Assembly: GCA_964430265.1 (NCBI GenBank) | Contig: CAYSEI010000003.1 | Coordinates: forward strand, 1,070-65,069 | Direction: 5' to 3' | Source of the DNA: an uncultured Pseudomonadales bacterium | GTDB lineage: Bacteria > Patescibacteriota > Microgenomatia > UBA1400 > CAYXSR01 | DNA length: 64,000 nucleotides | Shown here: positions 1 through 53,933 of the stretch, in pieces | Layout of the letters: every line of letters starts with the position of its first letter | Position numbering within the stretch: position 1 is the stretch's first letter | The notes under the pieces: generated by a model | The model's database searches: none | Told to the model about the DNA's origin: nothing | The model's input: only the letters and a program-made list of their open reading frames with translations | Translations under genes and position numbers: made by a program

Positions 1-159
1 GGCCGGGTTTAAATCTTTATTTACAACAATAACACTGTCCACATAAAGAAATATTTTCACTTGGTGTTTTTTGGCAATCGCCGCCTTGCTTAAATAATAT
101 AGTGTATCAATATCCTGATAAGTATAAGGCGGTTTGGTAACCATTAATCCTAACTTCAT
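1..159 (-). CDS. DsrE/DsrF/TusD-like sulfur-relay protein. Only the N-terminal 53 codons are present; the gene continues beyond the window start.
   Basis: Reverse-strand ATG at 159..157. Translation MKLGLMVTKPPYTYQDIDTLYYLSKAAIAKKHQVKIFLYVDSVIVVNKDLNPA is in frame to position 1. The pattern resembles the TusD/DsrE N-terminus, and the gene lies next to YeeE and TusA. Confidence 0.5.
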   Translation of the reverse strand, partial: MKLGLMVTKPPYTYQDIDTLYYLSKAAIAKKHQVKIFLYVDSVIVVNKDLNPA

Positions 160-165
160 AGTATA

Positions 166-1197
166 TTAAATTTCATTATTTCTAATAAATAAAAAGTAAG
201 CCATTGTCCAGTTGCCCAGAATTATAAAAATCCCAGCAACAAGACTAGAAACAGCTAGTTGAGGAACACCGCTTAAGATGTGTCCGATATTACAACCATT
301 AGCAATAACCGCACCCAATCCCATTAAAATTCCACCAAATAAAGATTGAACGGCAACTCTGGGTTTTGGATAACGAAACTTAAATTCTCCAGCAATTAAT
401 GAGCCAAAAAAAGCGCCCATTAACAAACCAATTACTTCAAATGATTCCCAAGTCAAAAAATTTTCTCCGTTTAAGATTGATTTTAGAATCGTTTCAAATC
501 CCATAGTAATGCCAAGCGGGTAATTCCTGCCCGAAAGCGCAGAAAAAACAAATGCTAAAATCCCGATCAATCCGATAACAAGTCCAGCTATTTGCCATTT
601 CCAGCCTTTCTTAAAGATAATTTTTATCAAGTTGCTGTGCTTATCTTTTTTATCAGAATTCTTTGTTTTGTTCCTTTTTTTTCCAAACAATAACCAAAAA
701 ATTATAAAGGAAAAAAAGCCGACCCAAATTATTTTCGGTACTCCGGTTATAGAATCTAAAGTTAATGGACCTAAATTAAAGTTTTGAATACCAGCAGTCA
801 ATCCCGATAAAATTCCGTCCTTAGCCAGAAAGGCAGCACCAACAAACCCGAATAAAGCCCACCAAGAACCTATCATTCCTTCCCCGACTCGATAAGCAGT
901 ACCGCTAGCACAACCCCCGGCTATTACCATCCCAAGACCGAAAATATAAGCGCCCAAGGGGACAGCAATCCAATAGAACGACTTTGGATTATATTCTATT
1001 AATCCAAAAGTGTTTAAAAGATAGAACCCAATCAATTCAACCGCAACAGCCAGACCAACAGCTTTAAGCAATGTAAAATCTTTAAACACAAGCGGATCGC
1101 GGAATGCAGAGTTCATACAAAATCGCCCTCGCTGCAAAGCAAATCCGAAAAGAATCCCCACAATTAATCCAGTAATTATAGTCAAAATATCTAACAT
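166..1197 (-). CDS. YeeE/YedE family inner-membrane sulfur (thiosulfate) transporter, TsuA-like
   Basis: 343 aa, multi-TM, with two internal repeats that each carry a conserved Cys motif (GGCASG and NGCNIG). A TusA-like gene lies directly upstream. Confidence 0.75.
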   Translation of the reverse strand: MLDILTIITGLIVGILFGFALQRGRFCMNSAFRDPLVFKDFTLLKAVGLAVAVELIGFYLLNTFGLIEYNPKSFYWIAVPLGAYIFGLGMVIAGGCASGTAYRVGEGMIGSWWALFGFVGAAFLAKDGILSGLTAGIQNFNLGPLTLDSITGVPKIIWVGFFSFIIFWLLFGKKRNKTKNSDKKDKHSNLIKIIFKKGWKWQIAGLVIGLIGILAFVFSALSGRNYPLGITMGFETILKSILNGENFLTWESFEVIGLLMGAFFGSLIAGEFKFRYPKPRVAVQSLFGGILMGLGAVIANGCNIGHILSGVPQLAVSSLVAGIFIILGNWTMAYFLFIRNNEI

Positions 1198-1201
1198 CTT
1201 T

Positions 1202-1459
1202 TTAACTTTTAACTTGAATTATTATACGATGATCCGGACCATCCTTTATCTTTTCCACTTTAAGCACTTTGTGCCCTTCTTTTTCTGAGTTACGAGGAAT
1301 CCTTTCTAAGGATAAGGGATAATCTGTTAAGACTTCTAACACCTCTTCAGGATTCATTTCCTTTAATTTTTTCCTGGTTTTAATATCCGGATATGGACAA
1401 ATCTCACCCCGGACATCAATACTTGCTGTTATTTTAACATCCTTATTTTCCTCTAACAT
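1202..1459 (-). CDS. tusA: TusA-like sulfurtransferase
   Basis: 85 aa with the CPxP active-site motif (GEICPYPDIK). Typical partner of YeeE. Confidence 0.75.
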   Translation of the reverse strand: MLEENKDVKITASIDVRGEICPYPDIKTRKKLKEMNPEEVLEVLTDYPLSLERIPRNSEKEGHKVLKVEKIKDGPDHRIIIQVKS

Positions 1460-1507
1460 ATAAACTTCCTTTCTCTGTTATAAATTTATTATAAAATAAA
1501 TTTGTAA

Positions 1508-2035
1508 TTACAATTTCGATACTGGATTGATACAGCCGTGTTCAAGACAATTTTCAATCTTAATTTCCATGTCCGCTTTCATACTTTCATTAAAACCAAC
1601 TATCGGATTTAAATCGCCAATAAATGTAGTCGGCACTCCTTGAGCTTGAATACCGTATGCCTCAGCCATTTCCTGAAATAACTGGACATTATCCTTATTC
1701 TTCCAGGTTTCATACATTTTTACTTCTAGATCCGAATATTTTTGTTCCATCTCTTCCAAGAAGGGTTTTTGGACTTCACAATGCGGACAACCGTCTCCCC
1801 AGAAAAAATAAACAACTGTTTTGCCTGAGCCATCAACTTCATCCTCAGTTGACTCAGATTTACCAAGAGTATCTGAGTCAGATTGATCAACTTTTTTTTC
1901 AGTTAACTTAACTGTAGATTGATTCGGATTATCTTGCTGGTGTTTTTCACCAGAAAAAAATAATAAACCAACTCCTAAAATTAGCAAAACTACCAAACCG
2001 GAATATATTACTTTTTTATTCATTTCACTTACCAC
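1508..2035 (-). CDS. Secreted, membrane-anchored thioredoxin-fold protein (CPHC)
   Basis: N-terminal hydrophobic anchor, then FFWGDGCPHCEVQKPF. Paralogous to the N-terminal domain of the ORF at 2428..4131. Confidence 0.7.
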   Translation of the reverse strand: MVSEMNKKVIYSGLVVLLILGVGLLFFSGEKHQQDNPNQSTVKLTEKKVDQSDSDTLGKSESTEDEVDGSGKTVVYFFWGDGCPHCEVQKPFLEEMEQKYSDLEVKMYETWKNKDNVQLFQEMAEAYGIQAQGVPTTFIGDLNPIVGFNESMKADMEIKIENCLEHGCINPVSKL

Positions 2036-2435
2036 CTTTTTGCATGCCTTGGCTGATCCATTCTTCAGCCTGGCTTGAATCTAATAATTCTTCAGTTTCC
2101 TCCGGTTTTTCCAGCTTTACTGTTGCAATCCAGCCTTTTTCATAAGGATCTTTATTAATCACTGTCGGATTATCAAACAGCTCCTCATGCACCTCAATAA
2201 CTTCTCCGGAAACAGGACTGGATAAATGCCCGCTCCACTTCAATGCCTCTAAAGTAACATAAGTATCACCCCTGCTTAACTTTTGTCCTTTTTTTGGCAG
2301 CTTAATAAACACAAATTCTTTCACTTTATCAGCCGCCGGCTTAATTACTCCCAAAGTGGCGGTTTCACCTTCAACTCTTACCCAGCAATAATCTTTGTTA
2401 TAAAGCAAATCATCTGGCAAGTTGTTTTCAGCCAT
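2025..2435 (-). CDS. gcvH: Glycine-cleavage H-protein-like lipoyl-carrier protein (orphan GcvH/LbpA-like)
   Basis: 136 aa. The lipoyl-lysine region LEALKWSGHLSSPVSGEV matches the GcvH ESVKAAS...PVSGEV core. No gcvT or gcvP is present in the window. Confidence 0.7.
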   Translation of the reverse strand: MAENNLPDDLLYNKDYCWVRVEGETATLGVIKPAADKVKEFVFIKLPKKGQKLSRGDTYVTLEALKWSGHLSSPVSGEVIEVHEELFDNPTVINKDPYEKGWIATVKLEKPEETEELLDSSQAEEWISQGMQKGGK

Positions 2436-4131
2436 TGTTTTCTCCTTCCTTTTTATCTTTTAAATTATCTTGATCCTTCTCATCTTCTTTTGTACCAATT
2501 TCTATACCGTATTTTGGCAGCACTTTGGTAAAAATAAAGTTTATAATTAATGCCGCAGCAATTGCTCCGCCAAAAACATAAAACATCCCGGAAATTCTAT
2601 TCATCAACTCCGGTTTTACTAACCAAACCCCGGATAAGGTCAGCATAATTATGCCTCCAATTAATTTAAGCATCCGCCCTTGAGTCTCTTCAAACTTACT
2701 TGCTTTAAGCGTAAACACAACCCCGGCAAAAACAACAAACTCATCAATAAAATATATCAACATATATAGGCCAAATAACAACGCGAAAAGGCTTTTTGAT
2801 ACACCTTGTTCAGCAAGTATGCTCGTCCAGATAACCGGGAAGCCAGCCGTACAAATCAACTCAACAAAAGTCACTCCAAAAGCCATAACTATTGTTGCCA
2901 GAATCATCGCAATGATTGATTCCTTTTTCATAATGCCCCTGATGTTTTTAAATATTTGCGGTTTAAATCTGTCAGGAATAGTAAAAGAAATACCCTTTTT
3001 ATACCAAAAATAATCCTTAATATTTACTGCTCCAAAAATAAAGGCAACTGTAGCTACTGCCAATTTAATCCAGTTCATATAACCGATTACCGTAAAGGTG
3101 TTAAAAAGTCCGAGGATAAACAAAGCATATACTAGCGTAGCAATACTAATAAAAGTAAGTCCGACCGCAAAGGTTTTTTTCCTGGAACCGGAATGAACAA
3201 CAATCCCCAATAGAAAAGTAATCACCCACAAAGAACAGGGGTTAAAACCGTCAACAAAGGCAACCAGCAAAGTCATGGCAAAAAGCGGCATATTAGAAAC
3301 ATTGACCTGACCGATTAAAGGAATATTAATTTTATACTCTTCCTCCGCAGTAACATCCCCGCTTTTAGGCAGAGACGGCGTGTAACCCTGTATATTTTTT
3401 GCCGGGCAAACACAATTTTCTTCCTGGCAAAGAACAATTTCACTTTCTAAATGGTCTCTTATTGCTGACTCACCGATAAAATAGCGTTCGCCAATAAAAA
3501 CAATCGGATAAGCACCACCGCCCACACCGTAGTTTTCCTTAAAATCCTCGTATAAACCCGCTTGCTTTTCAACATCATGACGATTGATATTAATATTGTA
3601 TTCTTTTTCTAAATTGCTTAAAAAGCCTTCAATATTTTGGCACTGGTTACAATCTTCCCGGTAAAAAAAGTGCAAACAAACGCTTTCTGCCTGTTCAGCA
3701 TTTTTTTTGTCACTAATACCTCCTGCTTTCTCACCCGGATCAATACAACCGTCTTCCAAACAACTAACAATTTTTTCTTCAATATCATCAGCCATGTTAT
3801 CAGAATAACCAACAATCGGAGCATAATTACCAATAAAAGTTGTTGGCACCCCACGGGCTTGAATGTCATAAGCAGCCGCTATTTTTTGAAATAATTTTTG
3901 ATTTTCCTGGTTATTCCAGGTTTCAAAGCTTTTTACCTCTAGCTCGGGATATTTATCCTCCATTTTTTCAAGAAAAGGTTTTTCCTCGGCACAATGCGGA
4001 CAGCCTTCACCCCAGAAAAAATAGACTGTAGTCGGCTCAGCCGCCCTAGCCACATTAGCTTTTAATACATTTAACCCTAGTATTAAAAAAATTAGACTGA
4101 CAATAAACAAAATTATTTTCTTTATATTCAT
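2428..4131 (-). CDS. Fusion protein: two N-terminal thioredoxin/glutaredoxin-like domains plus a C-terminal DsbD/CcdA transmembrane electron-transfer domain
   Basis: N-terminal anchor. Trx domain 1 carries CPHC. Domain 2 carries CNQC (FFYREDCNQCQNIEGF). The C-terminal multi-TM region carries the DsbD-beta/CcdA-type Cys (FVDGFNPCSLWV) and further TM helices. Confidence 0.75.
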   Translation of the reverse strand: MNIKKIILFIVSLIFLILGLNVLKANVARAAEPTTVYFFWGEGCPHCAEEKPFLEKMEDKYPELEVKSFETWNNQENQKLFQKIAAAYDIQARGVPTTFIGNYAPIVGYSDNMADDIEEKIVSCLEDGCIDPGEKAGGISDKKNAEQAESVCLHFFYREDCNQCQNIEGFLSNLEKEYNININRHDVEKQAGLYEDFKENYGVGGGAYPIVFIGERYFIGESAIRDHLESEIVLCQEENCVCPAKNIQGYTPSLPKSGDVTAEEEYKINIPLIGQVNVSNMPLFAMTLLVAFVDGFNPCSLWVITFLLGIVVHSGSRKKTFAVGLTFISIATLVYALFILGLFNTFTVIGYMNWIKLAVATVAFIFGAVNIKDYFWYKKGISFTIPDRFKPQIFKNIRGIMKKESIIAMILATIVMAFGVTFVELICTAGFPVIWTSILAEQGVSKSLFALLFGLYMLIYFIDEFVVFAGVVFTLKASKFEETQGRMLKLIGGIIMLTLSGVWLVKPELMNRISGMFYVFGGAIAAALIINFIFTKVLPKYGIEIGTKEDEKDQDNLKDKKEGENNG

Positions 4132-4793
4132 TTTATATACTTTCCTTTCATACCTTCTTTTAATAACAAAGCCAACCCTTCTGCATTTTTGTCACACTTA
4201 TCCGGACAATATATAGTCGGTCTTCTTGATAATTTAACTCTTTCACCATTATTCTCAAAAACATGAACAATACTTGCCTTGGTATAGTCGGTATTTTCCC
4301 AAGAAGTAATTACTATCCCTTTATCCAAATACTGATAAACATTATTAACCTGCTCAACATTTTCTATTGCAAAAGCATTTTTAACCGTTTCAATATCTAA
4401 ATCAGTAAAAATAGTGTAATCTTTTAATTGACCGCGGTAAACAATGCTTTCTTTATTGCTTAAAAAAGAATATCCGTCTTCTATTAAAATATACTCCATT
4501 TGCTGTTCAGTCGGTTTTAGTGTTCTCCCGGCCAAAATCATGTCTACTTTTTTGTTTTCTAAAAGAGCTAAACTCTCAGCAGTAGAACCAGTTTTAATAA
4601 TTTCATATTTTTCAGCATCAATTGTTTTAACCATTTCAAAACACGTCGGACAAGCAGCAATCTTTAATTTTTCCTTTTTCACAAACTGGCTGCTGTTAAC
4701 CTGCCCCGGCTTTTTTCCTTTTACAAAACTTAAACCTATTCCAGCAAAAACAGCTATTAAAACAGAGATAACAACTAATTTTTTGTTTATCAT
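4128..4793 (-). CDS. Hypothetical secreted or anchored protein with CxxC and CxxxC pairs
   Basis: 221 aa, N-terminal TM or signal sequence, CPTC near the N-terminus and CPDKC near the C-terminus. No family recognised. Embedded in the redox operon. Confidence 0.3.
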   Translation of the reverse strand: MINKKLVVISVLIAVFAGIGLSFVKGKKPGQVNSSQFVKKEKLKIAACPTCFEMVKTIDAEKYEIIKTGSTAESLALLENKKVDMILAGRTLKPTEQQMEYILIEDGYSFLSNKESIVYRGQLKDYTIFTDLDIETVKNAFAIENVEQVNNVYQYLDKGIVITSWENTDYTKASIVHVFENNGERVKLSRRPTIYCPDKCDKNAEGLALLLKEGMKGKYIK

Positions 4794-4800
4794 TTATATT

Positions 4801-5511
4801 TTAAAAAACCAACCTTAATAAAAACTGAGAATAATAAACACCTGTTACTAGAAAAATTATGGCGACTATTTTCCTGCTTACTTTTTCAATCTTCTGAACA
4901 ACAGCAAATGCCTGCCCTACCTTCTGCATAGAAAAAGCAATTATAAAAGAAAAAATTATTACCGGTAAACCTGTACCTAAAGCAAATATTGGAGGCAGCA
5001 AAAGTGCTTCTGTTGATTTAAGCACCATTGGGATAAGAACACCAAAAAACAATACACCGCTGTAAGGGCAAAATGCCAAAGCAAAAAGACTGCCTAATAA
5101 AAACGAACCCAAATAACCTTTAGTAGACAGTTTGCTTTTTAAATGCTCAATTTTTTTATTTTTAGTTTTTAAATTTAGTTTAATAACATCAAGCATAATT
5201 AAACCCAGAATAATTAAAACCGGCCCCAAAACCTTCTCCCCCCAGCCTTGAAATATTTTGGCTATTTGAAAGGAAGACAAACCAAAATATATTAAAGTTG
5301 CCAGAAGCGTATAGCTTAAACCCCTTCCCAAAGTATAAAAAACTCCGTTTAACAAAGTCTGCTTGGTTGATTTTAACTCTTTGGAAATATATGCAATTGC
5401 CGTAATATTGGTTGCCAAAGGACAAGGGCTGATTGAGGTAAGCACTCCTGTTAAAAAAGCAGTCAAAAGCGGAATGTTATAAGTATCAATCAAGTAGTTA
5501 ATAAACTGCAT
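4801..5511 (-). CDS. ccdA: CcdA-like cytochrome-c-biogenesis / DsbD-family thiol-disulfide transporter (transmembrane electron transfer)
   Basis: 236 aa, about 6 TM, with conserved Cys in TM1 (SISPCPLA) and TM4 (AFCPYSG). Confidence 0.7.
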   Translation of the reverse strand: MQFINYLIDTYNIPLLTAFLTGVLTSISPCPLATNITAIAYISKELKSTKQTLLNGVFYTLGRGLSYTLLATLIYFGLSSFQIAKIFQGWGEKVLGPVLIILGLIMLDVIKLNLKTKNKKIEHLKSKLSTKGYLGSFLLGSLFALAFCPYSGVLFFGVLIPMVLKSTEALLLPPIFALGTGLPVIIFSFIIAFSMQKVGQAFAVVQKIEKVSRKIVAIIFLVTGVYYSQFLLRLVF

Positions 5512-5512
5512 T

Positions 5513-6016
5513 TTATTTTCCCAATAGACTTCTTAATCTTGCTTCAAAATAATCAATAAATTGAGCTTCATTATTAACCAACCGCCACACTTTAACATCT
5601 TCACTAATATTATCTTGACCGTTCCTTATTGCATTAATAAATAAAGAGGATCCCCGGGCACGATATTTAGCAACTATTTCCTGATTCTCTTTTAACTCCC
5701 CATTGATATCTTTATAGATAATCTTGCCTGAAGCATATTCTTCCGGAAATTCTTCCTTAATGGTTTTTAACGCATATTCACCAACAGTTATACACGACCA
5801 GCATTGGTTTGTACCGTGAAAATGCACAATGACTATCTTATCCGCGGGCTGAGGCGTCGGGCTTGGAGAAACATGAGACGCTTTTTTACTTGAATTGCCT
5901 TCCCCTAGCACTTGATTATTACTTTGTGTTGTTCTATTACGGTATATTCCAAATCCAATTATTGCAATTACTACCACGGTAATAATTAAAGTTATTTTTT
6001 TATCCATATTCTCCAA
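5513..6016 (-). CDS. Membrane-anchored CxxC (CWSC) protein, possibly thioredoxin-fold
   Basis: N-terminal TM, Pro-rich linker, then VHFHGTNQCWSCITVGEY. Family not recognised. Confidence 0.35.
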   Translation of the reverse strand: MENMDKKITLIITVVVIAIIGFGIYRNRTTQSNNQVLGEGNSSKKASHVSPSPTPQPADKIVIVHFHGTNQCWSCITVGEYALKTIKEEFPEEYASGKIIYKDINGELKENQEIVAKYRARGSSLFINAIRNGQDNISEDVKVWRLVNNEAQFIDYFEARLRSLLGK

Positions 6017-6017
6017 A

Positions 6018-7175
6018 TTAAATTATTAACCCATACATAAATCCGGCAAGGGTTGTTAAAACCGTAATCGAAACTGCATAAACAAATGTCTTTTTTGTGC
6101 CAATAAGCTTACTGATTACCAAAAGCCCCTGAAGAGATAAAACCGGATCAGATAATAAATAAGCCATTAATGGTCCTTTATGCATACCCAATTCCATAAA
6201 ATTCTCTGCAATCGGTACTTCTACTAAAGCAGGAAAATAAGCAATTGCGCCAAACAAAACAGCAACAAAATTAGTTAAAATATTATTATTACTAGCTAAA
6301 GCCTGAAACTGTTTTTCAGGAATTATTTCAGTCAATGCTGAAGCAAAAAATACCCCGATTAAAAGCAAAGGAATAATTTGGGTAACAAATTTTATTGTTT
6401 CATTCCACCAAGCTTGTCTTCTTGAAGAGGAAAGCCAGCCAAAGGTCATTATTACCTGGATTAGAATCAAAGGCAGAACTAATCCATACCTTAAACCACT
6501 ACTAATCGGGGCAGTGCCGACTATTAAGATTGCTATCAATGTGCCCCAAAAAAAGCCTGTTTTCTTGCCTTGCAAGCGGTCCAAATCCTCTTTAATTATT
6601 TGTGTCTCTCCGTCTTCATGTCCATTGCCAAAAACAACCTCCATAATTATTCCGGTTAAAACTGCAAATGCTACTGAAAAAATAAACCGGATCAAGCTAA
6701 AACCCCAACCCAATCTCTGCCCGGTCAGAACTAAAGTAACAAGATTAAACGCCGGCCCGGCATAAAGAAGAGTAACCGCAACTCCCAAACCAGCACCCTT
6801 TTTCCAAATACCGGCAAAAAGGGGTAGAATCGTGCAAGAGCAAACTTGAACAAGAAAACCACTAGTAACAGCAATTACGTAAGCTAAGCCTTTTTTTGTT
6901 TTGCCGGATAAATATTTTAAAACCTGGCTGGAATCAACTAAACTATTAATTGCTCCAGCAATAAAGAAAGCCGGGATTAAACAAAAAAGAACATGTGCGG
7001 AAAGATAATCAACCAGCCCAAGCCAGCCTTGATAAACTGCCTGGCCAATTAACTCCTGAACTGTTTCTTGGGCAAGAAAACCGCCAATCTGATCCTGCCA
7101 CAGATAAATAATCAAATAGGCACCAGACAATAAGCCAATAACCCAGTTTTTTTTAATAATTTTAAATATTTTCAT
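6018..7175 (-). CDS. DUF318/ArsP-like permease
   Basis: 385 aa multi-TM with an intramembrane CSC motif (VQVCSCTILP). Genomic association with Thioredoxin_3 and ArsR genes. Confidence 0.6.
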   Translation of the reverse strand: MKIFKIIKKNWVIGLLSGAYLIIYLWQDQIGGFLAQETVQELIGQAVYQGWLGLVDYLSAHVLFCLIPAFFIAGAINSLVDSSQVLKYLSGKTKKGLAYVIAVTSGFLVQVCSCTILPLFAGIWKKGAGLGVAVTLLYAGPAFNLVTLVLTGQRLGWGFSLIRFIFSVAFAVLTGIIMEVVFGNGHEDGETQIIKEDLDRLQGKKTGFFWGTLIAILIVGTAPISSGLRYGLVLPLILIQVIMTFGWLSSSRRQAWWNETIKFVTQIIPLLLIGVFFASALTEIIPEKQFQALASNNNILTNFVAVLFGAIAYFPALVEVPIAENFMELGMHKGPLMAYLLSDPVLSLQGLLVISKLIGTKKTFVYAVSITVLTTLAGFMYGLII

Positions 7176-7178
7176 AAT

Positions 7179-7430
7179 TTATTCTTCGTTCTCAGTAATC
7201 AACTTTTTAATTTTTTCAACATCATTAACTAGACCAGTTAAAACCGGCTCATCATCAATAGTTAAAACCGGGCTGGACATTACACCCAATTCCATAATTT
7301 TCTGAATGCCTTCCTGACCGGAAACATATTCAACCTTCTGGTCTATTTGTATTTCTTCAACCGCTTTTTTTGTTAGCTCAAACAGCTTTTTACAAGTAGG
7401 GCATCCCGAACCTAAGATTTGGATTTTCAT
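7179..7430 (-). CDS. Thioredoxin_3 family small redox-active disulfide protein (redox-active disulfide protein 2)
   Basis: 83 aa, MKIQILGSGCPTCKKL with CxxC near the N-terminus. Typical partner of the DUF318 permease. Confidence 0.7.
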   Translation of the reverse strand: MKIQILGSGCPTCKKLFELTKKAVEEIQIDQKVEYVSGQEGIQKIMELGVMSSPVLTIDDEPVLTGLVNDVEKIKKLITENEE

Positions 7431-7750
7431 TTTTCCTCCTTTAATAAATTAAAAATTAAATCACTAACTTGTTTTCCCTTTGGGGTTAGAAAATAATATT
7501 TGCGTCTTCCTTCACGACGGCTGTCAACCAATTTTTCTTGCTTCAAGTCACTTAAATGATGGGAGGTTAAACTCTGGCTCATGTCAAAATAATCTTTCAT
7601 TTCACAGACACAGCATTCCCCCTGCCTTAAAACACAAATTAATTTTAGCCTGCTTTTCTCACTTAAGAGTTTTAATAAAGCAGAGATATCTTCAATTTTC
7701 TCTGCTTCTTTTTTTTCTGGTTGGCAACATTTATATGAACGCACATTCAT
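7427..7750 (-). CDS. ArsR/SmtB-family metalloregulatory transcriptional repressor
   Basis: 107 aa. Metal/metalloid-binding Cys cluster (ECCVCEM) precedes a helix-turn-helix region. First gene of the minus-strand operon. Confidence 0.7.
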   Translation of the reverse strand: MNVRSYKCCQPEKKEAEKIEDISALLKLLSEKSRLKLICVLRQGECCVCEMKDYFDMSQSLTSHHLSDLKQEKLVDSRREGRRKYYFLTPKGKQVSDLIFNLLKEEK

Positions 7751-7996: not shown

Positions 7997-8371
7997 CTAC
8001 TTTTGCTTTTCTTTTAAAATATCTTTTAATTCTGCTATTTCCTTTTCTAGATCCTTTAGTTTTTTTGCAACTGAAAGATCGATTTTGTAGTCTTTGATTG
8101 CCCGCTGGCGGTCGCTTTCCTGCTCAATTTTAGTACGGATAAGAATGAGGATTGACAGAATAATTGCTTCCAAAGAAACCCAAAAAGTCAATAAATCATA
8201 ATACAGTCCTATCAACAACCAGAATGCAAAAAAAAGAAGGTGTAAAACCAAAAAAGTCCAGGAACTAAAAAAATTAATTAAATGATTTCCAAATTTTTCT
8301 AAGGGAGTATTTTTTATTTGCTTGCTAAATTCGTCTTCCTTAGGAAGAATTGGTTTTTGTTTGTTATTCAT
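7997..8371 (-). CDS. DUF1003-like small membrane protein
   Basis: 124 aa with two TM helices followed by a charged coiled-coil tail. Confidence 0.4.
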   Translation of the reverse strand: MNNKQKPILPKEDEFSKQIKNTPLEKFGNHLINFFSSWTFLVLHLLFFAFWLLIGLYYDLLTFWVSLEAIILSILILIRTKIEQESDRQRAIKDYKIDLSVAKKLKDLEKEIAELKDILKEKQK

Positions 8372-8432
8372 TTATATACATTTTAAATTATTCTTTTTTC
8401 TTTTACAAACTCTTGATATAATCATGGTTGTT

Positions 8433-8951
8433 ATGAAAATTATAGATAAAGTAACTACTAAAACAGATGTTTTTTCCCGGACAAATACATACTTAATCGG
8501 ATTGCTTGTACTTTTAATTGTTCCGCCTTTCTTTATAAACAACCAATTCATTACTGGACCCTTAGTAAATGCAATTCTTTTAAGCTCAGCTGTAATTGGC
8601 AGTAATTCTGTGGGAACAATATATGGTATGCTACCCAGTACGATTGCTTTAACCAGCGGGTTACTGCCGCTTCCTTTAGCACCAATGATCCCCTTTATAA
8701 TGTTGGCTAATGCAATTTATGTTCTGACTTTTAAAAGTTTATATAACAAAAATCTCTTTATGGGAATATTTGCTGGCTCTTTGGCAAAATTTATATTTTT
8801 AAATGCTTGTGTTTCTTTTATTTTACCCAATTTATTAAAAGTACAGTTTTTAAGTAAAATAGCAGTAATGATGAGCTGGCCCCAGCTGGTAACAGCAATT
8901 GTTGGCGGTGTTATTGCTTTAGGTATTATTGAAAAATTCCAGCAAAATTAA
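8433..8951 (+). CDS. Hypothetical polytopic membrane protein (about 5 TM), possibly a transporter substrate-capture component
   Basis: The ORF at 8322 overlaps the upstream gene, and the internal ATG at 8433 (MKIIDKV) is the more likely start. Hydrophobic throughout. Confidence 0.35.
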   Translation: MKIIDKVTTKTDVFSRTNTYLIGLLVLLIVPPFFINNQFITGPLVNAILLSSAVIGSNSVGTIYGMLPSTIALTSGLLPLPLAPMIPFIMLANAIYVLTFKSLYNKNLFMGIFAGSLAKFIFLNACVSFILPNLLKVQFLSKIAVMMSWPQLVTAIVGGVIALGIIEKFQQN

Positions 8952-8986: not shown

Positions 8987-9997
8987 ATGGACAAAGATTT
9001 ATTATTGGAAAAAATTAAGCAAGCAGGAATTGTCGGACGCGGCGGCGGTGGTTTTCCCTCTCATTTAAAGTGGAAAAGAATTTTAGATCATCAAGCAGAT
9101 AAAAAAGTGCTTGTTTGTAATGCTTCCGAAGGTGAACCCGGTGTTTTTAAAGATTTTTACATCTTAAAAAATTACCCGGAAAAGGTATTTAAAGGCATAC
9201 GTATAGCTTTGGACTTTTTAGATTCTAAAGATGCATATATTAATTTTAATAAAGCCTATTACCATCAATTAAGGGATAAAATTGATCCTTTAGTACAGAA
9301 TTACAAGGATAAAGGTTGTGACATTCGTATTTTTATTGAAGAGCCCAGCTACATCGGAGGGGAAACCGGAGCACTTTTAAATGCAATTGAAGGAAAAAGA
9401 ACTGAGCCACGACTCAAACCGCCCTCTCCTTCTTTAGCAGGAATTCGTGGAAATCCTTGTTTAGTCCATAATGTTGAAACACTTTATGATGTCTGCTTGG
9501 TTGTTGATGGAAAATTTAAGGAAAAAAGATATTACAGTATCTCTGGTGAGGTTAGAAACTCTGGTGTTTATCATTTAAACAGGGATTTAAACATGGAAGA
9601 AGTTTTGAAAAAAACAAATAACTGGCCGGACATGGATTTTTTTGTACAGGCTGGCGGAGGAGCAAGCGGCCCTTGCTTTAATAAAGAACAGTTAAAAAAA
9701 GAAAAAACTCCGGGAAGCGGATCTATTGAGGTGTATCCAGCTGATACACATCCTAGAGAAATGTTTAAAAAATGGTTTACTTTTTATAAAAAGGAAAGCT
9801 GTGGCAAATGCGGGCCCTGTAGACAGGGAACTTATCAATTGTATAAAATGATTAACCAACGTGAACAAATCCCTTGGAAAGATATGGGAGAAATAATTGA
9901 AGCAATGGAAAAAACAGCTTTTTGTGCTTTGGGAACTTCCATTGCTATTCCCTATAAAAGCTATTTAACTAATGTATTAAAAAAGTGTGTATTATAA
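8987..9997 (+). CDS. NuoF-like NAD(P)H-binding FMN / 4Fe-4S flavoprotein (hydrogenase diaphorase HydB-like subunit)
   Basis: GRGGGGFPSHLKW and CNASEGEPGVFKD (NADH and FMN sites of the 51-kDa family). The C-terminus carries ESCGKCGPCRQG plus a distal Cys, matching the N3-type 4Fe-4S site. The stop overlaps the hydA start. Confidence 0.8.
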   Translation: MDKDLLLEKIKQAGIVGRGGGGFPSHLKWKRILDHQADKKVLVCNASEGEPGVFKDFYILKNYPEKVFKGIRIALDFLDSKDAYINFNKAYYHQLRDKIDPLVQNYKDKGCDIRIFIEEPSYIGGETGALLNAIEGKRTEPRLKPPSPSLAGIRGNPCLVHNVETLYDVCLVVDGKFKEKRYYSISGEVRNSGVYHLNRDLNMEEVLKKTNNWPDMDFFVQAGGGASGPCFNKEQLKKEKTPGSGSIEVYPADTHPREMFKKWFTFYKKESCGKCGPCRQGTYQLYKMINQREQIPWKDMGEIIEAMEKTAFCALGTSIAIPYKSYLTNVLKKCVL

Positions 9998-11702
9998 CAT
10001 GAAGAAAAAAAACACAGTATATATTGACAATAAACCATATTTTTTTGAACAAGGTGACACTATTTTAGATGTTGCCAGAAAAAATGACATTGATATTCCC
10101 CACCTTTGTTATCATCCCGACTTGCCCAAAGTGGCAAACTGCAGAACCTGTCTGGTTGAAAACCTGAACAAGGAGGAAATAACCACATCCTGTACCCTAG
10201 TTTGCAAAGACGGCATGAAAGTTAACACTAAAAGTGAGGAAATAAACAGATTAAGAAAAACTAATCTGGAACTGGTTTTGGCACAGCATACACAAAATTG
10301 TAATTTGTGCCAGAGCGGACTGCAGTGTGATACTGCAGACTTAATGAAAAAATATGGAGTTACCGGATACAAATATAGCAAAGAAAAGGTAGATGCTAAA
10401 AAACCCAAAATCGGTTCCTTAATAGAAATTGATCCTAAATTGTGCATTGGCTGTAGAAAATGTACTGAGGCCTGCAAAAAACAAGGTATTGGATATTTAG
10501 AACTGGATAAAAGAGGTCAGGAAATACATGTTAAACCAACTGAAAACAAGCATATTGATTGTATCTTTTGCGGACAATGCACTTTAAAATGTCCTGTCAA
10601 TGCAATCCGAGAACAAAATCAGGTAGAAGACGTAGAAAGAAAATTAAATGCTCCTGATAAAATTGTTATTGCCCAGATGGCTCCTTCTGTAAGAACTAGC
10701 ATCGGTGAAGAGTTTGGATTTCCAATCGGTACCAATCTGAGCAAAAAAATGTATACGGCATTTAGAAAATTGGGCTTTGAAAAGGTTTTTGATGTAAATA
10801 TGGGTGCAGACATTACCACCATGGTAGAAGCAGAAGAACTAATTGAAAGGATTGAAGAAAACGAAGGTTTGCCAATGTTTACTTCTTGCTGTCCTTCCTG
10901 GGTAAAATTTATTGAATTTTATTACCCAGAATTTATCCCCAATTTAACTACCTGCCGTTCACCCCAAATTCATTCCGGTGCTGCATACAAAACCTGGTGG
11001 GCCCAAAAAAAAGGAATTGACCCCAAAAATATTGTAGTGGTTTCTATTATGCCTTGTACTTCCAAAAAATTTGAGGCACAATTGGAAAAACTGAAAGTCA
11101 ACGGCCATTATCCAGTTGACCATGTTTTGACTACCAGAGAAACCGCTGACCTATTAAAAAAACACAATATCGACCCGCATGATCTAAAAGATTCAGACGT
11201 TGACAAATACGGAGAATATACTGGTGCCGCAGCAATATACGGGGCTTCCGGCGGAGTAATGGAGTCAGCACTTAGAACTGCTGCTTATCAAATGACTGGA
11301 AAAGACTTGGAAAAACTGGAATTTGAACAGGTAAGAGGAACTAAAGGAATTAAAAAAACAACCGTCACTATTGATGGCAAGGAATTACGTTTAGCCGTAG
11401 TTTCTAATACAAAAAATGCCCGCATTATTTTACAAGAGATTAAAAAGAAACCAAAAGCTTACCACTATATTGAATTTATGACCTGTCCGGGCGGATGTTT
11501 GGGCGGCGGCGGCCAGCCGCTTTCTTCCACTGAAGAAACTGTCAAAGAAAGGATTAAGAGCTTGTATAAAATAGATACAGAATCAAAAATAAGAAAGGCA
11601 CACGAAAACCCGATTGTTAAAGAATTTTTTGATTACCTAGACACTTTGCCTGAAGAAAAAAGAAAACAAATTCTTTATACCAACTACCAGAAAAGAAGTT
11701 GA
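9987..11702 (+). CDS. hydA: [FeFe]-hydrogenase catalytic subunit (group A, M3-like). Domains are an N-terminal 2Fe-2S ferredoxin, 2x[4Fe-4S] and the H-cluster.
   Basis: H-cluster motifs are L1 FTSCCPSWV, L2 MPCTSKKFEA and L3 EFMTCPGGCLGGGGQP. Two CxxCxxCxxxCP ferredoxin motifs and an N-terminal Cys pattern CYHPDLPKVANCRTC are also present. Confidence 0.9.
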   Translation: MYYNMKKKNTVYIDNKPYFFEQGDTILDVARKNDIDIPHLCYHPDLPKVANCRTCLVENLNKEEITTSCTLVCKDGMKVNTKSEEINRLRKTNLELVLAQHTQNCNLCQSGLQCDTADLMKKYGVTGYKYSKEKVDAKKPKIGSLIEIDPKLCIGCRKCTEACKKQGIGYLELDKRGQEIHVKPTENKHIDCIFCGQCTLKCPVNAIREQNQVEDVERKLNAPDKIVIAQMAPSVRTSIGEEFGFPIGTNLSKKMYTAFRKLGFEKVFDVNMGADITTMVEAEELIERIEENEGLPMFTSCCPSWVKFIEFYYPEFIPNLTTCRSPQIHSGAAYKTWWAQKKGIDPKNIVVVSIMPCTSKKFEAQLEKLKVNGHYPVDHVLTTRETADLLKKHNIDPHDLKDSDVDKYGEYTGAAAIYGASGGVMESALRTAAYQMTGKDLEKLEFEQVRGTKGIKKTTVTIDGKELRLAVVSNTKNARIILQEIKKKPKAYHYIEFMTCPGGCLGGGGQPLSSTEETVKERIKSLYKIDTESKIRKAHENPIVKEFFDYLDTLPEEKRKQILYTNYQKRS

Positions 11703-11706
11703 ATGC

Positions 11707-12471
11707 TTGCTGGTATTAAAACAATTGTATTATTCTCTAAAATATAATTTCTGTATATTTATGAAAGCAACTGAAAATCTAATCAATCAGCAACAGATTA
11801 AGTTTTTAACTATGCACTATTATTACCGTATAGAGAAATTTGTCAAAAAAGTTGCTTCTAAATATGATAAAAAAAACTTAAAGGTTTTAGACATTGGTGC
11901 CGGCAAATGCTCATATAAAAAACTTTTTAACAAAGCTTCTTATTATTCCACCGATATTCGCCAAAATAAAGACAATAGCATTAATTACGTAACTGATTTT
12001 AATTATGGATTAAAAGACCTTGAAAACAATTCTTTTGATTATATTTTATGTATTCAGGTTTTAGAACACCTTAAATTTCCCCATAAAGCTTTTAAGGAAA
12101 TGAATAGATTATTAAAACCTGGGGGTAAATTATTTCTATCGACAAACTTTATCGCTCATATGCATATGATTCCCAATGACTATTTCCGCTTCACTAAGTA
12201 TGGGTTAAAACTATTAGGTGAAGAAAACGGTTTTGAAGTAGAACATCTAGCAGAACACGGGGGCATTTTTCATGTTTTGAGTTATACATTAAGCACCCTG
12301 CCTCTAAGAATAATATTCTGCAAAGTAAATTTTTGGTACACTCTTTATTTATTGATTTTCAGCCTACCAATTATATGCTTAAACTTATTAGCAATACTCT
12401 TGGATAACTTTGATAAAGAAAAAAGAATGACGATAAATTACGAAGTCATTTATAAAAAAACATCTTCTTAA
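11707..12471 (+). CDS. Class I SAM-dependent methyltransferase (type 11-like)
   Basis: VLDIGAGKC glycine loop, then FDYILCIQVLEHL. Hydrophobic C-terminus. The start may be the internal Met MKATENL. Confidence 0.65.
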   Translation: MLVLKQLYYSLKYNFCIFMKATENLINQQQIKFLTMHYYYRIEKFVKKVASKYDKKNLKVLDIGAGKCSYKKLFNKASYYSTDIRQNKDNSINYVTDFNYGLKDLENNSFDYILCIQVLEHLKFPHKAFKEMNRLLKPGGKLFLSTNFIAHMHMIPNDYFRFTKYGLKLLGEENGFEVEHLAEHGGIFHVLSYTLSTLPLRIIFCKVNFWYTLYLLIFSLPIICLNLLAILLDNFDKEKRMTINYEVIYKKTSS

Positions 12472-12491
12472 TCTCCCCTATCCTTATCAAT

Positions 12492-13946
12492 TTACCTAAA
12501 ATCAAGCTGTTTGCTAAAGTAACGCTTAACAAAACGCAAATAATATTTAAAAACATCCCAATTGGTTAAAGCATATTGTATTTTCATCAGCATCCACTGG
12601 GGCGTAAAAACCAGACTGTAAAATTTACGGATGTATTCTTTTAATTCTTTGTTTTTTAAATCCGTTTTTACAATTGGCTGGCGCATGTCATATTTTCCCC
12701 AATCTTTTGTTTTTAGCCAGTTTTTTTCATTGGCTTCTTTAAAAAGAGGTGTTCCCGGATAAGGGATTACAATAGTAGTCTGCCAGCTGTCAATTAATTT
12801 TTTTTGTACTAGATCTTTAAAAAATTGGTAAGTGTTTTCAATATCTTTTTCTTCTTCCCAGGGATAGCCAATCATTACTGTTACATGCGGATTTAAGCCT
12901 GCTTTTTTTGCATTTTTTAAATTGGGTTCAATCTGTTCCACTTTTAAACCTTTGTTTATTTTATCCAGAGTTTTCTGGTTAGCTGATTCAAGTCCATAAA
13001 GTAAGAAGCGGAAGCCGGCTTTGCGCATCATTTGGTAGTCTTTTTTTGTTAGGTTGCTGTTAAAACGCATATTGCAATTTATCCTGACTTTTTTATTTAA
13101 TCCTTTTTTAATCATTTTTTCACAAAACTCATTTAGCCAGTTACCAACAGGAAAAGTTCCTGAATCATCCATGATTTCTTTTATTGAGTATTTTTTAACT
13201 AATTCCTCCACTTCTTTTATTGCCTTATCAACAGAAATAGTTCTGCACTGGGGGTATAAGTTTGCCGGCCAGCTGCAAAAAGTACACTTCCCCCACCAGC
13301 AGTCGCGTGAAAACATAGTATATGTACCCGGCAAGCTGCGGTAATTTGAGTTTTTATATGCATAAGTCTTCCAGTTTGTTAGCTCCCTGTCTATTAAAGG
13401 AAGATTGCTTAAATCTTTTTTAAGCTGGAATTTTCCTGTATTTAATATTTTTCTATTTTTCTTGTACCATATACCTGGTTTAAGCTTTTTTCCTTTTTCT
13501 ATATGCTTAACAACACTTAAAAGCAGATAATCATAGTCTCCTCCGGTGAGAATATAGTCGGCCTGTGAGTTATTCAAAGTTTCTTTTGGTCTAGCTGTTA
13601 CATGATCTCCTGCTAAAATAATTGTTAATTGCTTGTTTATTTTTTTTAATTTCTCAATTATTTGCCAGTGTTTTTTAATTACTGGTGTTTTTGTTTCTAA
13701 AAAAAGAATATCCGGATTAAAATCAAATAATTTGCTCTCCCATTTTTTGTATTGCATCTGCTTGTTTATTCCGTCCAACCATAAAATCTCGTATCCAGCA
13801 TTTTTAAGCATTGTAGCTGCATAAGCAGGAATTATCGGATAGGCTGTCCAAGGGGTTTTTGCCCATTGAAACTGCCTGTTTTGGGCAAGCAGGGCTGTTC
13901 CTTTTTTTGATTCTAATTGAGGATAGCCAATTGCTATTTTCATCAT
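12492..13946 (-). CDS. B12-binding-domain radical SAM protein (class B radical SAM family)
   Basis: The N-terminal cobalamin-binding-like domain begins MKIAIGYPQ. The radical SAM CxxxCxxC is CWWGKCTFC. The ORF could start at 13967, but that leaves only 18 bp to the divergent GT gene. Confidence 0.75.
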   Translation of the reverse strand: MMKIAIGYPQLESKKGTALLAQNRQFQWAKTPWTAYPIIPAYAATMLKNAGYEILWLDGINKQMQYKKWESKLFDFNPDILFLETKTPVIKKHWQIIEKLKKINKQLTIILAGDHVTARPKETLNNSQADYILTGGDYDYLLLSVVKHIEKGKKLKPGIWYKKNRKILNTGKFQLKKDLSNLPLIDRELTNWKTYAYKNSNYRSLPGTYTMFSRDCWWGKCTFCSWPANLYPQCRTISVDKAIKEVEELVKKYSIKEIMDDSGTFPVGNWLNEFCEKMIKKGLNKKVRINCNMRFNSNLTKKDYQMMRKAGFRFLLYGLESANQKTLDKINKGLKVEQIEPNLKNAKKAGLNPHVTVMIGYPWEEEKDIENTYQFFKDLVQKKLIDSWQTTIVIPYPGTPLFKEANEKNWLKTKDWGKYDMRQPIVKTDLKNKELKEYIRKFYSLVFTPQWMLMKIQYALTNWDVFKYYLRFVKRYFSKQLDFR

Positions 13947-13985
13947 TTTTAGTATACCATTAGCCAAATATTGTAAAATAGGGGT

Positions 13986-30090: not shown

Positions 30091-30198
30091 TTGGGCAGAT
30101 TAACTCTATAACTTAAGTATAGTAATAAATTATGCGCTTGTCCATTATTTGCTCTCATTATATCAGAAGGTTTGAAAATTGCTGCAGAATGCGTTTTA

Positions 30199-35402: not shown

Positions 35403-35403
35403 T

Positions 35404-53868: not shown

Positions 53869-53933
53869 TCTACTTTAGATATTTAAATTTTTTCCTCTTT
53901 TAAATATTTTTTTCTCCTGTTAAAATATATTTA

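Follow-up and report, generated by a model that had tools for sequence, protein, structure and literature searches.

Gene content and organization of the operon

The left end of a 64-kb stretch of DNA (64,000 nucleotides of contig CAYSEI010000003.1; the whole stretch analysed is called the window) carries a row of 12 co-directional minus-strand genes, in which the gene for an exported thioredoxin-glutaredoxin-membrane fusion protein is followed by that of a GcvH-like lipoyl carrier. The row runs unbroken from position 7750 to position 1, where the window edge truncates the final gene. The gene junctions measured, in order, -4, +3, +1, +1, +7, -4, -8, -11, +48, +4, and +6 nucleotides (nt), and the row was interpreted as one operon with the gene of an ArsR-type repressor at its head. 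A preliminary description of this DNA had proposed a tight co-directional operon of eleven genes; the tight spacing was borne out (gaps of -11 to +48 nt), while the count had to be raised to twelve. Profile searches were conducted against Pfam and NCBIfam and judged by curated bit-score cut-offs. The operon is a mosaic of three modules, which are listed below with their genes and key residues (aa, amino acids; Trx, thioredoxin; Grx, glutaredoxin).

7750-4801, minus strand: ars-type module (ArsR, Thioredoxin_3 of the ArsE family, ArsP_1 permease, ArsF family, and CcdA-like ArsG family)
7427-7750, minus strand: ArsR/SmtB-family regulator, 107 aa; PF01022 (HTH_5) E 9e-14, NF033788 84.9 bits (cut-off 55)
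7179-7430, minus strand: small, cytoplasmic Thioredoxin_3 protein (MTH895/ArsE family), 83 aa, CPTC motif; PF13192 E 5e-20, TIGR00412 74.5 bits (cut-off 62)
6018-7175, minus strand: ArsP_1 (DUF318) permease, 385 aa, VCSCT motif at Cys112/114; PF03773 E 2.5e-63
5513-6016, minus strand: ArsF-family thioredoxin-like protein, 167 aa, CWSC motif; NF040494 87.1 bits (cut-off 60)
4801-5511, minus strand: ArsG-family, CcdA-like membrane protein, 236 aa; PF13386 (DsbD_2) E 3e-21, NF040495 298.9 bits (cut-off 200)
4793-1508, minus strand: core (g221, Trx-Grx-membrane fusion, GcvH-like lipoyl carrier, and anchored CPHC thioredoxin)
4128-4793, minus strand: g221, orphan exported protein, 221 aa, anchored by a transmembrane segment, ACPTC motif; no family
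2428-4131, minus strand: fusion protein, 567 aa, with signal peptide, Trx domain, Grx-like domain, and seven-helix membrane domain; Thioredoxin/Glutaredoxin Pfam matches on the N-terminal half only
3991-4002, minus strand: CPHC of the fusion Trx domain
3640-3651, minus strand: CNQC of the fusion Grx-like domain
2497-3300, minus strand: seven-helix membrane domain of the fusion
3235-3237, minus strand: fusion Cys299 in DGFNPC, invariant in an alignment of 41 homologues
2851-2853, minus strand: fusion Cys427 in ELxCTAGFP, invariant in the same alignment
2025-2435, minus strand: GcvH-like lipoyl carrier, 136 aa; PF01597 E 5.5e-35, NF002270 122.8 bits (cut-off 117)
2238-2240, minus strand: lipoyl-lysine Lys66 of GcvH in LEALKWSGHLSSPVSGE, kept in 35 of 35 neighbourhood homologues
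1508-2035, minus strand: membrane-anchored exported thioredoxin, 175 aa, CPHC motif at 1778-1789; Thioredoxin_2 and Thioredoxin Pfam matches
1459-1, minus strand: sulfur module (TusA-like, YeeE, and DsrE)
1202-1459, minus strand: TusA/YeeD/YedF-like sulfur carrier, 85 aa, single Cys21 in CPYP (CPxP); PF01206 E 2.4e-21
166-1197, minus strand: YeeE/TsuA-like sulfur-compound transporter, 343 aa; PF04143 (Sulf_transp) E 6.8e-89
1-159, minus strand: DsrE/TusD-like gene, first 53 codons, cut by the window edge; PF02635 E 2e-8, TusD model 31 bits (partial)

The earlier homology calls for YeeE, TusA, and DsrE could be confirmed at the Pfam level (PF04143, PF01206, and PF02635), and profile searches confirmed all other family calls save one. 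The label 'DsbD' in a 'Trx-Trx-DsbD fusion' was withdrawn, the membrane half matching no Pfam or NCBIfam model and retaining a structural analogy only. The former division of the operon into three parts was also redrawn: the 'CcdA' and one of 'two more CxxC proteins' passed the ArsG and ArsF cut-offs and belong with the ArsR/Thioredoxin_3/permease part.

Examination of operon conservation, as suggested in that description, revealed all three modules together in five other loci (L003, L007, L015, L016, and L017), whose fusion proteins shared 76%, 53%, 43%, 44%, and 57% identity, respectively, with that of the window. The absence of conserved co-occurrence, named in that description as a ground for refutation, was thus not what the relatives showed. 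The ars-type module lay downstream rather than upstream in L015 and L016, with the three modules still linked. Because L003 and L007 show that order, the operon most likely continues past position 1 with the rest of DsrE, a DsrF-like gene, DsrH, LipA, LplA, and LplB. Exact look-ups with the YeeE and fusion proteins and a 60-nt exact DNA search of metagenome contigs retrieved no sequence from beyond that position. Approximately half of the operon consists of known modules, and its centre is a conserved partnership between a putatively CcdA-like membrane protein and a dedicated lipoyl carrier, of which no description was found. The earlier statement that the composite is not a standard described system thus holds for the core, while the ars-type part, nearly half of the operon, has been described (PMC2963123; ArsE, ArsF, and ArsG as cited in PMC9144182). 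In the literature on bacteria of the candidate phyla radiation (CPR) and on DPANN archaea, no account of a fusion-GcvH-LipA-LplA cluster was found, which is absence of evidence only, the literature coverage being incomplete.

Conservation of the fusion protein and its GcvH-like partner

A total of 132 related loci were compared, comprising 80 genome loci collected with the fusion protein as seed, three found by exact protein look-up, and 49 metagenome loci collected with the GcvH motif E[AS]xKW[ST]G. The proteins of the window and those of loci L001 and L003 were mapped onto them by tblastn. The sample includes duplicate loci (L001/L002, L035/L092, L089/L132, L093/L094, and L125/L126). Pairing of the fusion gene with GcvH was testable in 61 loci that carry GcvH of this type with 1.8 kb or more of upstream sequence; downstream content was counted in 39 loci with at least 5 kb downstream, and ars-type genes in 31 loci flanked on both sides.

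The fusion gene lay directly upstream of GcvH on the same strand in 57 of the 61 testable loci (pooled searches), and in the window the GcvH start overlaps the fusion stop by 8 nt. When the search was seeded with the fusion, GcvH was found directly 3' in approximately 34 of approximately 40 loci of CPR/DPANN type; when it was seeded with the GcvH motif, the fusion gene was found directly upstream in 28 of 31 testable loci. Named fusion homologues came mostly from Patescibacteria (CPR) and DPANN (Woesearchaeota, Nanoarchaeota, Pacearchaeota, and Aenigmatarchaeota), and the records carrying the fusion gene bore archaeal (Woesearchaeota, Pacearchaeota, and Nanoarchaeia) as well as bacterial labels (Falkowbacteria, Moranbacteria, and Patescibacteria). 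Remoter fusion homologues were labelled Chloroflexota or Bipolaricaulota, and GcvH stood beside none of these.

The GcvH-like protein has the GCV_H fold with its lipoyl-lysine, and Lys66 aligned with the lipoyl-lysine of the E. coli GcvH reference. Its homologues carry the distinctive lipoyl-lysine motif LEA[VL]KWSGHLSSPVSGE, by which a GcvH subtype (EAxKWSGH) could be defined. The protein scored 106 against the TIGR00527 equivalog and missed the cut-off of 116. A signal peptide precedes the Trx and Grx-like domains of the fusion, and none was found on GcvH, LipA, or LplA. GcvH had previously been listed as one item among several; its presence was upheld, while its rank was not, since the fusion and the lipoyl-GcvH form the conserved centre of the operon.

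Lipoate-assembly genes accompanied the pair in the related loci, LipA being present in 29 and LplA in 33 of the 39 loci counted. Scores in L003 were 406 bits for LipA (cut-off 203), 358 bits for TIGR00510 (cut-off 310), and 79 bits for LplB (cut-off 65). The genes after GcvH in L003 and L007 were TusA, two DsrE genes, DsrH, LipA, LplA, and LplB; the DsrE position starts a trio resembling TusD-TusC-TusB, ahead of the lipoate genes. No GcvT, GcvP, E2, or Lpd gene was found in the annotated neighbourhoods of relatives, nor GcvT, GcvP, or Lpd in the gene row 1-7750, its neighbours to 11702, and ten further large open reading frames (ORFs) of the window, the remaining ORFs not having been scanned. 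Annotation pipelines would label this GcvH a 'glycine cleavage system protein', which may mislead metabolic reconstructions. A membrane-anchored protein of 150-161 aa with a conserved CTSGCGGVYPGPY motif and no family (L001:13653-14138 and L003:15723-16175) recurs between LipA and LplA in several loci.

Two exported proteins flank the pair. The protein g221 gave zero Pfam or NCBIfam matches, even when its homologues were scanned member by member. All of its 92 homologues are annotated as hypothetical, and every named one is from Patescibacteria-group bacteria; Cys48 is the sole invariant cysteine of the family, and the gene adjoins the fusion gene in 11-14 related loci. The anchored CPHC thioredoxin is a paralogue of the fusion's first Trx domain, of which CPHC is the family consensus, and tblastn cross-matches to the fusion gene were seen in most loci. 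A separate copy of the anchored thioredoxin occurs downstream of GcvH in many loci.

Membrane domain of the fusion protein

The C-terminal 290 residues of the fusion matched no Pfam or NCBIfam model, and residues 280-567 gave no Pfam match even at E<=10. DsbD models were matched by none of the 41 fusion-family members, alignment of the domain with the ArsG/CcdA family by hhalign gave a probability of 0.2%, and no PDB sequence match was obtained. Identification of the domain as DsbD by sequence was ruled out by these Pfam, hhalign, family-member, and PDB searches. A few fusion-family members weakly matched PF11139, a LysE-clan model.

Structure models were obtained with AlphaFold2, with a predicted local distance difference test score of 81 for the full-length protein and 79.5 for the membrane domain alone. 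Cys299 and Cys427 lie at helix breaks in these models, one in each half of a 3+3(+1)-helix domain. The arrangement is that of DsbD and CcdA, in which each of two three-helix repeats has a cysteine near a proline in its first helix. A fold search with the full-length fusion returned thioredoxin-fold matches only, and the membrane domain was then modelled separately. Compared with the PDB, the latter model aligned with the nuclear magnetic resonance structure of CcdA, 5VKV, at TM-scores of 0.46/0.53 with a weak Foldseek E of 2.9, the other listed matches scoring at most 0.25. Because of the two invariant cysteines at helix breaks, and because 5VKV gave the sole substantial TM-score, the modelled domain can be called CcdA-like in design, with membership of the DsbD family not demonstrated. 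Its own family comprised 776 clusters at 50% identity for E<=1e-30 and 2,244 for E<=1e-10, nearly all members carrying an N-terminal extension of 130-470 residues; it is a sizeable family without a Pfam model.

Sulfur module and the variable slot

YeeE and YeeD are an established thiosulfate uptake pair, with three conserved cysteines in the transporter and a CPxP active-site cysteine in the partner (PMC11073785). The YeeE of the window has exactly three cysteines (27, 96, and 302), placed similarly to C22, C91, and C293 in the S. thermophila protein, and its TusA-fold CPxP partner is encoded 4 nt upstream; a TusD/C/B-like trio is also shared through the relatives. Both window proteins scored under the curated TsuA and TsuB equivalog cut-offs, YeeE reaching 305.7 bits with the spirochaete-type TsuA model (cut-off 400) and 228.1 with the other (cut-off 645), and the TusA-like protein 22.4 bits with TsuB/YeeD (cut-off 147.5). 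The earlier assignment to a TsuA/TsuB-type pair therefore stands for the families and key cysteines and fails at the equivalog level. The best NCBIfam match of the TusA-like protein was YedF (70.1 bits, cut-off 79), and unlike the described YeeE/YeeD and TusBCD/DsrEFH systems, the window block has no TusE/DsrC or MnmA acceptor nearby and is set inside a lipoate and thiol-relay operon.

A selenium substrate for YeeE was disfavoured, as the YedE selenium models scored 107 and 50 bits against 306 and 228 for the thiosulfate models; given the YedF match of the TusA-like protein, selenium stays a less likely candidate. From the sequence comparison, thiosulfate or sulfane sulfur is the preferred candidate substrate.

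Between GcvH/thioredoxin and LipA lies a variable slot, whose filling was counted in the 39 loci. A flavoprotein of the CoA-disulfide/CoA-persulfide reductase/NADH-oxidase type occupied it in 26/39 loci and the TusA-YeeE-DsrE-DsrE-DsrH block in 7/39; one locus (L023) had both the flavoprotein and TusA-YeeE-DsrE, and 7/39 had neither, three of them with a DUF169 gene instead. The genes of the sulfur relay proposed earlier are present in the operon; YeeE-TusA-DsrE is a minority accessory which is usually replaced by the flavoprotein.

The slot flavoprotein scored 301 bits with TIGR03385, under the cut-off of 579, and its best PDB matches were 6PFZ and 8A56. It forms a distinct subfamily with the active-site motif YSPCALPY, under all NCBIfam equivalog cut-offs, and occurs at L092:8922-10250 and in L008, L013, L021, L029, L089, L093, L121, and others; the 64-kb window has no copy of it. 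At L001:12049-12822, and also in L005, L022, L028, L091, L096-L098, and L117, the gene immediately after GcvH encodes DUF169 (PF02596); L001, L002, and L022 carry neither the flavoprotein nor TusA-YeeE-DsrE, and DUF169 may be a third alternative partner. In L007, the closest full analogue of the window operon, a DUF362 protein with a 4Fe-4S insert and a 2-thiouracil desulfurase (PF04463), another sulfur-handling enzyme, follow LplB (12276-13687).

Ars-type module and its regulator

The intergenic region upstream of ArsR is AT-rich and contains two candidate control elements.

7779-7751, minus strand: candidate promoter TTGACA-17-TAATAT, found by a consensus scan that was not enriched overall over shuffles (30 found, 30.2 expected)
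7783-7769, minus strand: candidate operator, a 15-nt palindrome TTGTTTGaCAAACAA overlapping the -35 box

As the annotated ATG follows the -10 box without a gap, the true start codon of ArsR may differ. Consensus scans for internal promoters and terminators were at background (for terminators, 10 against 7.8 expected) and are uninformative either way.

ArsR combines the winged-helix HTH_5 domain with the thiolate metal(loid) site of ArsR/SmtB metalloregulators: an ECCVCE motif (Cys46, 47, and 49) lies at the alpha3 position, next to an N-terminal Cys8-Cys9 pair, and the CVCE motif is common to most ArsRs of related loci. Since it carries the classical thiophilic site, control by As(III)-like or soft-metal species appears plausible from the sequence, and the phrase 'under a metalloregulator' used earlier for the operon is reasonable.

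The Thioredoxin_3 start overlaps the ArsR stop by 4 nt, and the genes of the ArsE, ArsF, and ArsG families are encoded together within 2.6 kb under ArsR, all passing their cut-offs. The ArsG-family protein has one cysteine in each half, in SPCP (Cys30) and FCPY (Cys148). The ArsF-family protein matched no Pfam domain and is predicted to be extracytoplasmic from an N-terminal hydrophobic anchor read in its sequence. The ArsP_1 permease scored under the cut-offs of the SO_0444 Cu/Zn efflux and SaoE equivalogs. Among the 31 loci flanked on both sides, ArsR was found in 14, Thioredoxin_3 in 10, ArsP_1 in 8, and ArsG in 5. The Falkowbacteria loci L092/L035 present one tight row of ArsR, Thioredoxin_3, ArsP_1, ArsF, ArsG, fusion, GcvH, CPHC thioredoxin, flavoprotein, LipA, LplA, and LplB.

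That ars operons can combine CcdA, a thioredoxin, 'redox-active disulfide protein 2' (Thioredoxin_3), and ArsP has been on record since 2010 (Castillo & Saier, PMC2963123), and ArsE, ArsF, and ArsG were named from a Shewanella roxarsone/nitarsone study (Chen, Zhang & Rosen 2019, as cited in PMC9144182). The window genes 7750-4801 belong to the same families, and the four models with a curated cut-off were all passed. The window copy differs in being joined to a far longer operon and in that the regions seen hold no core arsenic genes such as ArsC or Acr3/ArsB. Current pipelines would name the CcdA-like gene an 'aromatic arsenical efflux permease', a label which may mislead metabolic reconstructions.

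Among the metagenome-assembled genome or sample names of L035, L042, and L002 are T1Sed10, CSSed11, and ML8, which point to sediments of soda lakes or other alkaline saline sites. The stability of polysulfides and thioarsenates under such conditions may bear on the combination of sulfur and ars-type genes.

Proposed relay and alternative explanations

The operon can be read as encoding a transmembrane thiol-disulfide relay that is linked to lipoyl-GcvH and supplemented by sulfur and metalloid modules, a reading drawn from gene context to which we assign a probability of roughly 0.45. From the gene families, the conserved cysteines and lysine, the gene neighbourhood, and the predicted locations, we infer every electron- and sulfur-transfer step together with its direction. 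Lipoate would be made and attached to the cytoplasmic GcvH-like protein by LipA and LplA/LplB, encoded a few genes downstream in the relatives. The lipoyl dithiol/disulfide would then exchange with the two invariant membrane cysteines of the CcdA-like domain, and these with the fusion's own exported Grx-like (CxQC) and Trx-like (CPHC) domains, which may pass electrons to the anchored CPHC thioredoxin and perhaps to the one-cysteine g221. Lipoyl-GcvH would thereby take the role that cytoplasmic thioredoxin has for DsbD/CcdA. Lipoamide, near -290 mV, is reducing enough for DsbD-type cysteine pairs. Because of textbook redox potentials and the DsbD/CcdA analogy, the direction from the cytoplasm to the outside is favoured as likelier, and cytoplasm-to-envelope reductant transfer, as suggested in the preliminary description, is most likely the direction of the relay. 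Thioredoxin_3 in the cytoplasm, ArsG, exported ArsF, and ArsP_1 may constitute a second, parallel relay plus a permease for a thiophilic substrate.

Thiosulfate or a similar sulfur anion would enter through YeeE, its sulfur would be held as persulfide on TusA and the DsrEFH-like carriers, and dihydrolipoyl-GcvH would be the nearest plausible dithiol for reducing persulfide to sulfide; alternatively, the YeeE-TusA-DsrEFH block may supply sulfur for the cluster of LipA. Three roles are conceivable for the flavoprotein of most relatives: NAD(P)H-dependent reduction of lipoyl-GcvH, reduction of sulfane sulfur, or electron supply to LipA. A more specific form of the relay is somewhat doubtful and is offered tentatively: in CPR/DPANN, a dedicated lipoylated GcvH-like protein, not thioredoxin, would be the cytoplasmic redox partner of the hitherto unclassified CcdA-like membrane protein, its lipoyl group being charged by an NAD(P)H-dependent flavoprotein of the CoA-persulfide-reductase type or coupled to imported thiosulfate/persulfide through YeeE-TusA-DsrEFH.

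Several points weigh against the lipoyl-linked relay. No sequence homology of the membrane domain to DsbD/CcdA was detected (no Pfam match; hhalign 0.2%), its Foldseek E to 5VKV was only 2.9, and its contact with GcvH is proposed from gene context. CPHC is the active-site motif of the oxidase DsbA, which hints at the opposite electron direction. As the window ends inside DsrE, its own LipA and LplA are deduced from relatives only, and no lipoyl-group reductase was found within the window. GcvH, LipA, and LplA/LplB may be no more than a set of genes with which the genome supplies lipoate to other enzymes. The duplicated loci are not independent, and the counts somewhat overstate independence. 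The flavoprotein could serve LipA rather than GcvH, by analogy with the proposal that LipT feeds lipoyl synthases in sHdr clusters (PMC11094781).

The row may alternatively be a stress island without functional coupling, in which ars-type metalloid/organoarsenical resistance, thioredoxin-fed CcdA-type maintenance, and housekeeping lipoate and thiosulfate assimilation lie side by side, with GcvH as a scaffold or carrier for other enzymes. Each module does occur alone in many loci, the ars-type set has been described by itself (PMC2963123), YeeE/YeeD suffices by itself for thiosulfate uptake (PMC11073785), GcvH exceeds the cut-off of the NCBIfam GcvH subfamily (122.8 against 117 bits), and the flavoprotein near LipA may be LipA's electron donor, as in the LipT proposal (PMC11094781). 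We nevertheless consider such an island unlikely, given that the fusion-GcvH pair is kept in 57/61 loci under bacterial and archaeal labels and through rearrangements, its genes overlap in the window, the distinct KWSGH subtype of GcvH retrieves the fusion gene when used as seed, and the annotated neighbourhoods contain no GcvT, GcvP, E2, or Lpd gene. CPR/DPANN genomes are also not usually known to encode lipoate-dependent dehydrogenase complexes. The electrons might instead run inwards, the CPHC domains oxidizing secreted proteins like DsbA and passing electrons through the two-cysteine membrane domain to lipoyl-GcvH and on to the flavoprotein (NAD+) or to TusA/DsrEFH sulfane sulfur or thiosulfate, as a quinone-free route of disulfide formation. 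The CPHC sites of the fusion's first Trx domain (as family consensus) and of the anchored thioredoxin, presumably DsbA-like, fit this idea, as does the single slot shared by two alternative 'sinks', the flavoprotein and the sulfur relay. CPR/DPANN are not known to have quinones, so that DsbB/VKOR would be inoperable and another acceptor would be needed. The route is nonetheless improbable: by textbook potentials, transfer from a DsbA-like site (approximately -120 mV) to lipoamide (approximately -290 mV), NAD+ (-320 mV), or thiosulfate (approximately -400 mV) is strongly uphill, and DsbD/CcdA-type domains are known as reductant exporters.

An extended detoxification of organoarsenicals or thio-arsenic compounds would likewise account for several genes: ArsR would sense As(III)-type species, ArsE/ArsF would reduce aromatic arsenicals, ArsG and ArsP would export them, and the relay, the lipoyl dithiol, and the sulfur carriers would handle As-S compounds. 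The lipoyl dithiol is a classical target and chelator of As(III). The ArsE, ArsF, and ArsG models were all over their curated cut-offs, ArsR carries the CVC site and an N-terminal CC pair, an ArsP_1 permease lies in the operon, in L092/L035 the core follows the ars-type genes without interruption, and the sample names suggesting soda-lake sediments provide a lead only. Such a role for the whole operon is hard to reconcile with the fusion-GcvH loci, most of which lack ars-type genes (ArsP_1 in 8/31 and ArsG in 5/31), and with the Pfam-annotated neighbourhoods and the window gene row, where ArsC, Acr3/ArsB, ArsM, and ArsH were unseen; moreover, the NCBIfam names are propagated from one Shewanella study. 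We regard it as having little chance of being correct. By far the least probable explanation, one to which we give almost no weight, is that the [FeFe] hydrogenase nearby drives an H2-linked energy metabolism in which the operon carries out the sulfur reduction. On the other strand, a NuoF-like gene does lie 1.2 kb away and a group A [FeFe] hydrogenase 2.2 kb away. The genes are, however, divergent with two unrelated ORFs between them, no polysulfide, thiosulfate, or sulfite reductase is present, and none of the 132 related loci had a hydrogenase or NuoF-like gene in the fetched flanks.

If the lipoyl-linked relay is correct, it would assign a function to the lipoate synthesis genes and the 'glycine cleavage H' annotations of ultra-small symbionts thought to be without glycine cleavage and 2-oxoacid dehydrogenases, and it would explain why lipoate synthesis genes are retained in organisms without lipoate-dependent dehydrogenases. 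Lipoyl-GcvH would be a third kind of cytoplasmic electron partner for thiol redox export (or import) across the membrane, tied to sulfane-sulfur handling and metalloid sensing. The control of surface-protein redox state without quinones or respiratory chains would then become directly testable.

Comparison with known systems

The DsbD/CcdA pathways (E. coli DsbD; CcdA with ResA/StoA/Etrx-type thioredoxins) share with the window system a membrane domain with one cysteine per pseudo-symmetric half, thioredoxin-fold domains at the outer face, fused or anchored, and a co-encoded small cytoplasmic dithiol protein. The window membrane domain differs in lying outside PF02683 and PF13386, in its own family of approximately 800 to 2,200 clusters, and the Trx/Grx domains of the fusion are N-terminal. 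Instead of a thioredoxin, the conserved cytoplasmic neighbour here is a GcvH-like, lipoylated protein that comes with LipA and LplA/LplB of its own.

The sHdr-LbpA pathway of sulfur oxidation in Hyphomicrobium, Aquifex, and others is defined by GcvH-like lipoate-binding proteins whose genes cluster with those of TusA, DsrE, a lipoate ligase, and a lipoyl synthase (PMC6067878, PMC11094781, PMC10332631); lipoyl proteins are redox partners in sulfur metabolism there (PMC6067878, PMC11094781). The GcvH-like protein itself is shared, as is its clustering with TusA/DsrE carriers, a dedicated lipoate-protein ligase, a lipoyl synthase, and, in some organisms, an importer resembling YeeE; L003 and L007 have TusA/DsrE and the dedicated ligase and synthase beside the GcvH-like protein. 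No sHdr (HdrA/B/C-like) Pfam family was found in the window operon, L001, L003, or L007. The synthase here is classical LipA and not LipS1/LipS2 (LipS2 model 40 bits, cut-off 270), the partner is a membrane thiol-disulfide protein, and the hosts are fermentative and ultra-small in contrast to the sulfur oxidizers of the sHdr-LbpA type.

A lipoyl-protein redox relay is also formed by the mycobacterial Lpd-SucB-AhpD-AhpC system, in which, as proposed here, the protein-bound lipoyl dithiol is a reductant carrier and not an acyl or aminomethyl carrier. The same comparison applies to GcvH-L of S. aureus, which promotes oxidative-stress resistance (PMC12440151). Both of these relays are cytoplasmic, and neither is known to pass electrons to a membrane thiol-disulfide transporter.

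Hydrogenase region and other window content

The following further features were located in the window.

7997-8371, minus strand: DUF1003 membrane protein gene, co-directional with the operon and 246 nt upstream of ArsR
8322-8951, plus strand: multi-pass membrane ORF, 209 aa, no family, overlapping the 5' end of the DUF1003 gene
8987-9997, plus strand: NuoF-like flavoprotein gene, identified by profile search, 1.2 kb from the operon
9987-11702, plus strand: group A [FeFe] hydrogenase, 668 bits with NF040763 (NADH-dependent A6 type), under the cut-off of 765, 2.2 kb from the operon
12492-13967, minus strand: B12-binding radical SAM enzyme
28651-37083, minus strand: type IV pilus genes (PilM-like, PilB-type ATPase)
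51622-56297, plus strand: two tandem class A penicillin-binding proteins

The hydrogenase had been placed 1.3 kb from the operon; the gene at 1.2 kb is NuoF-like, and the hydrogenase starts at 9987. The two genes overlap by 11 nt, with no NuoE-like subunit noticed between them. The speculative link to H2-driven sulfur reduction made earlier was rejected on the absence of such neighbours from the related loci. Neither the DUF1003 gene nor the 209-aa ORF was conserved near the operon in related loci. A search of the whole window with Rfam gave zero RNA elements. The G+C content of the window was approximately 34%; its class A penicillin-binding proteins and type IV pilus genes mark it as bacterial, and its nearest relatives are CPR-labelled.

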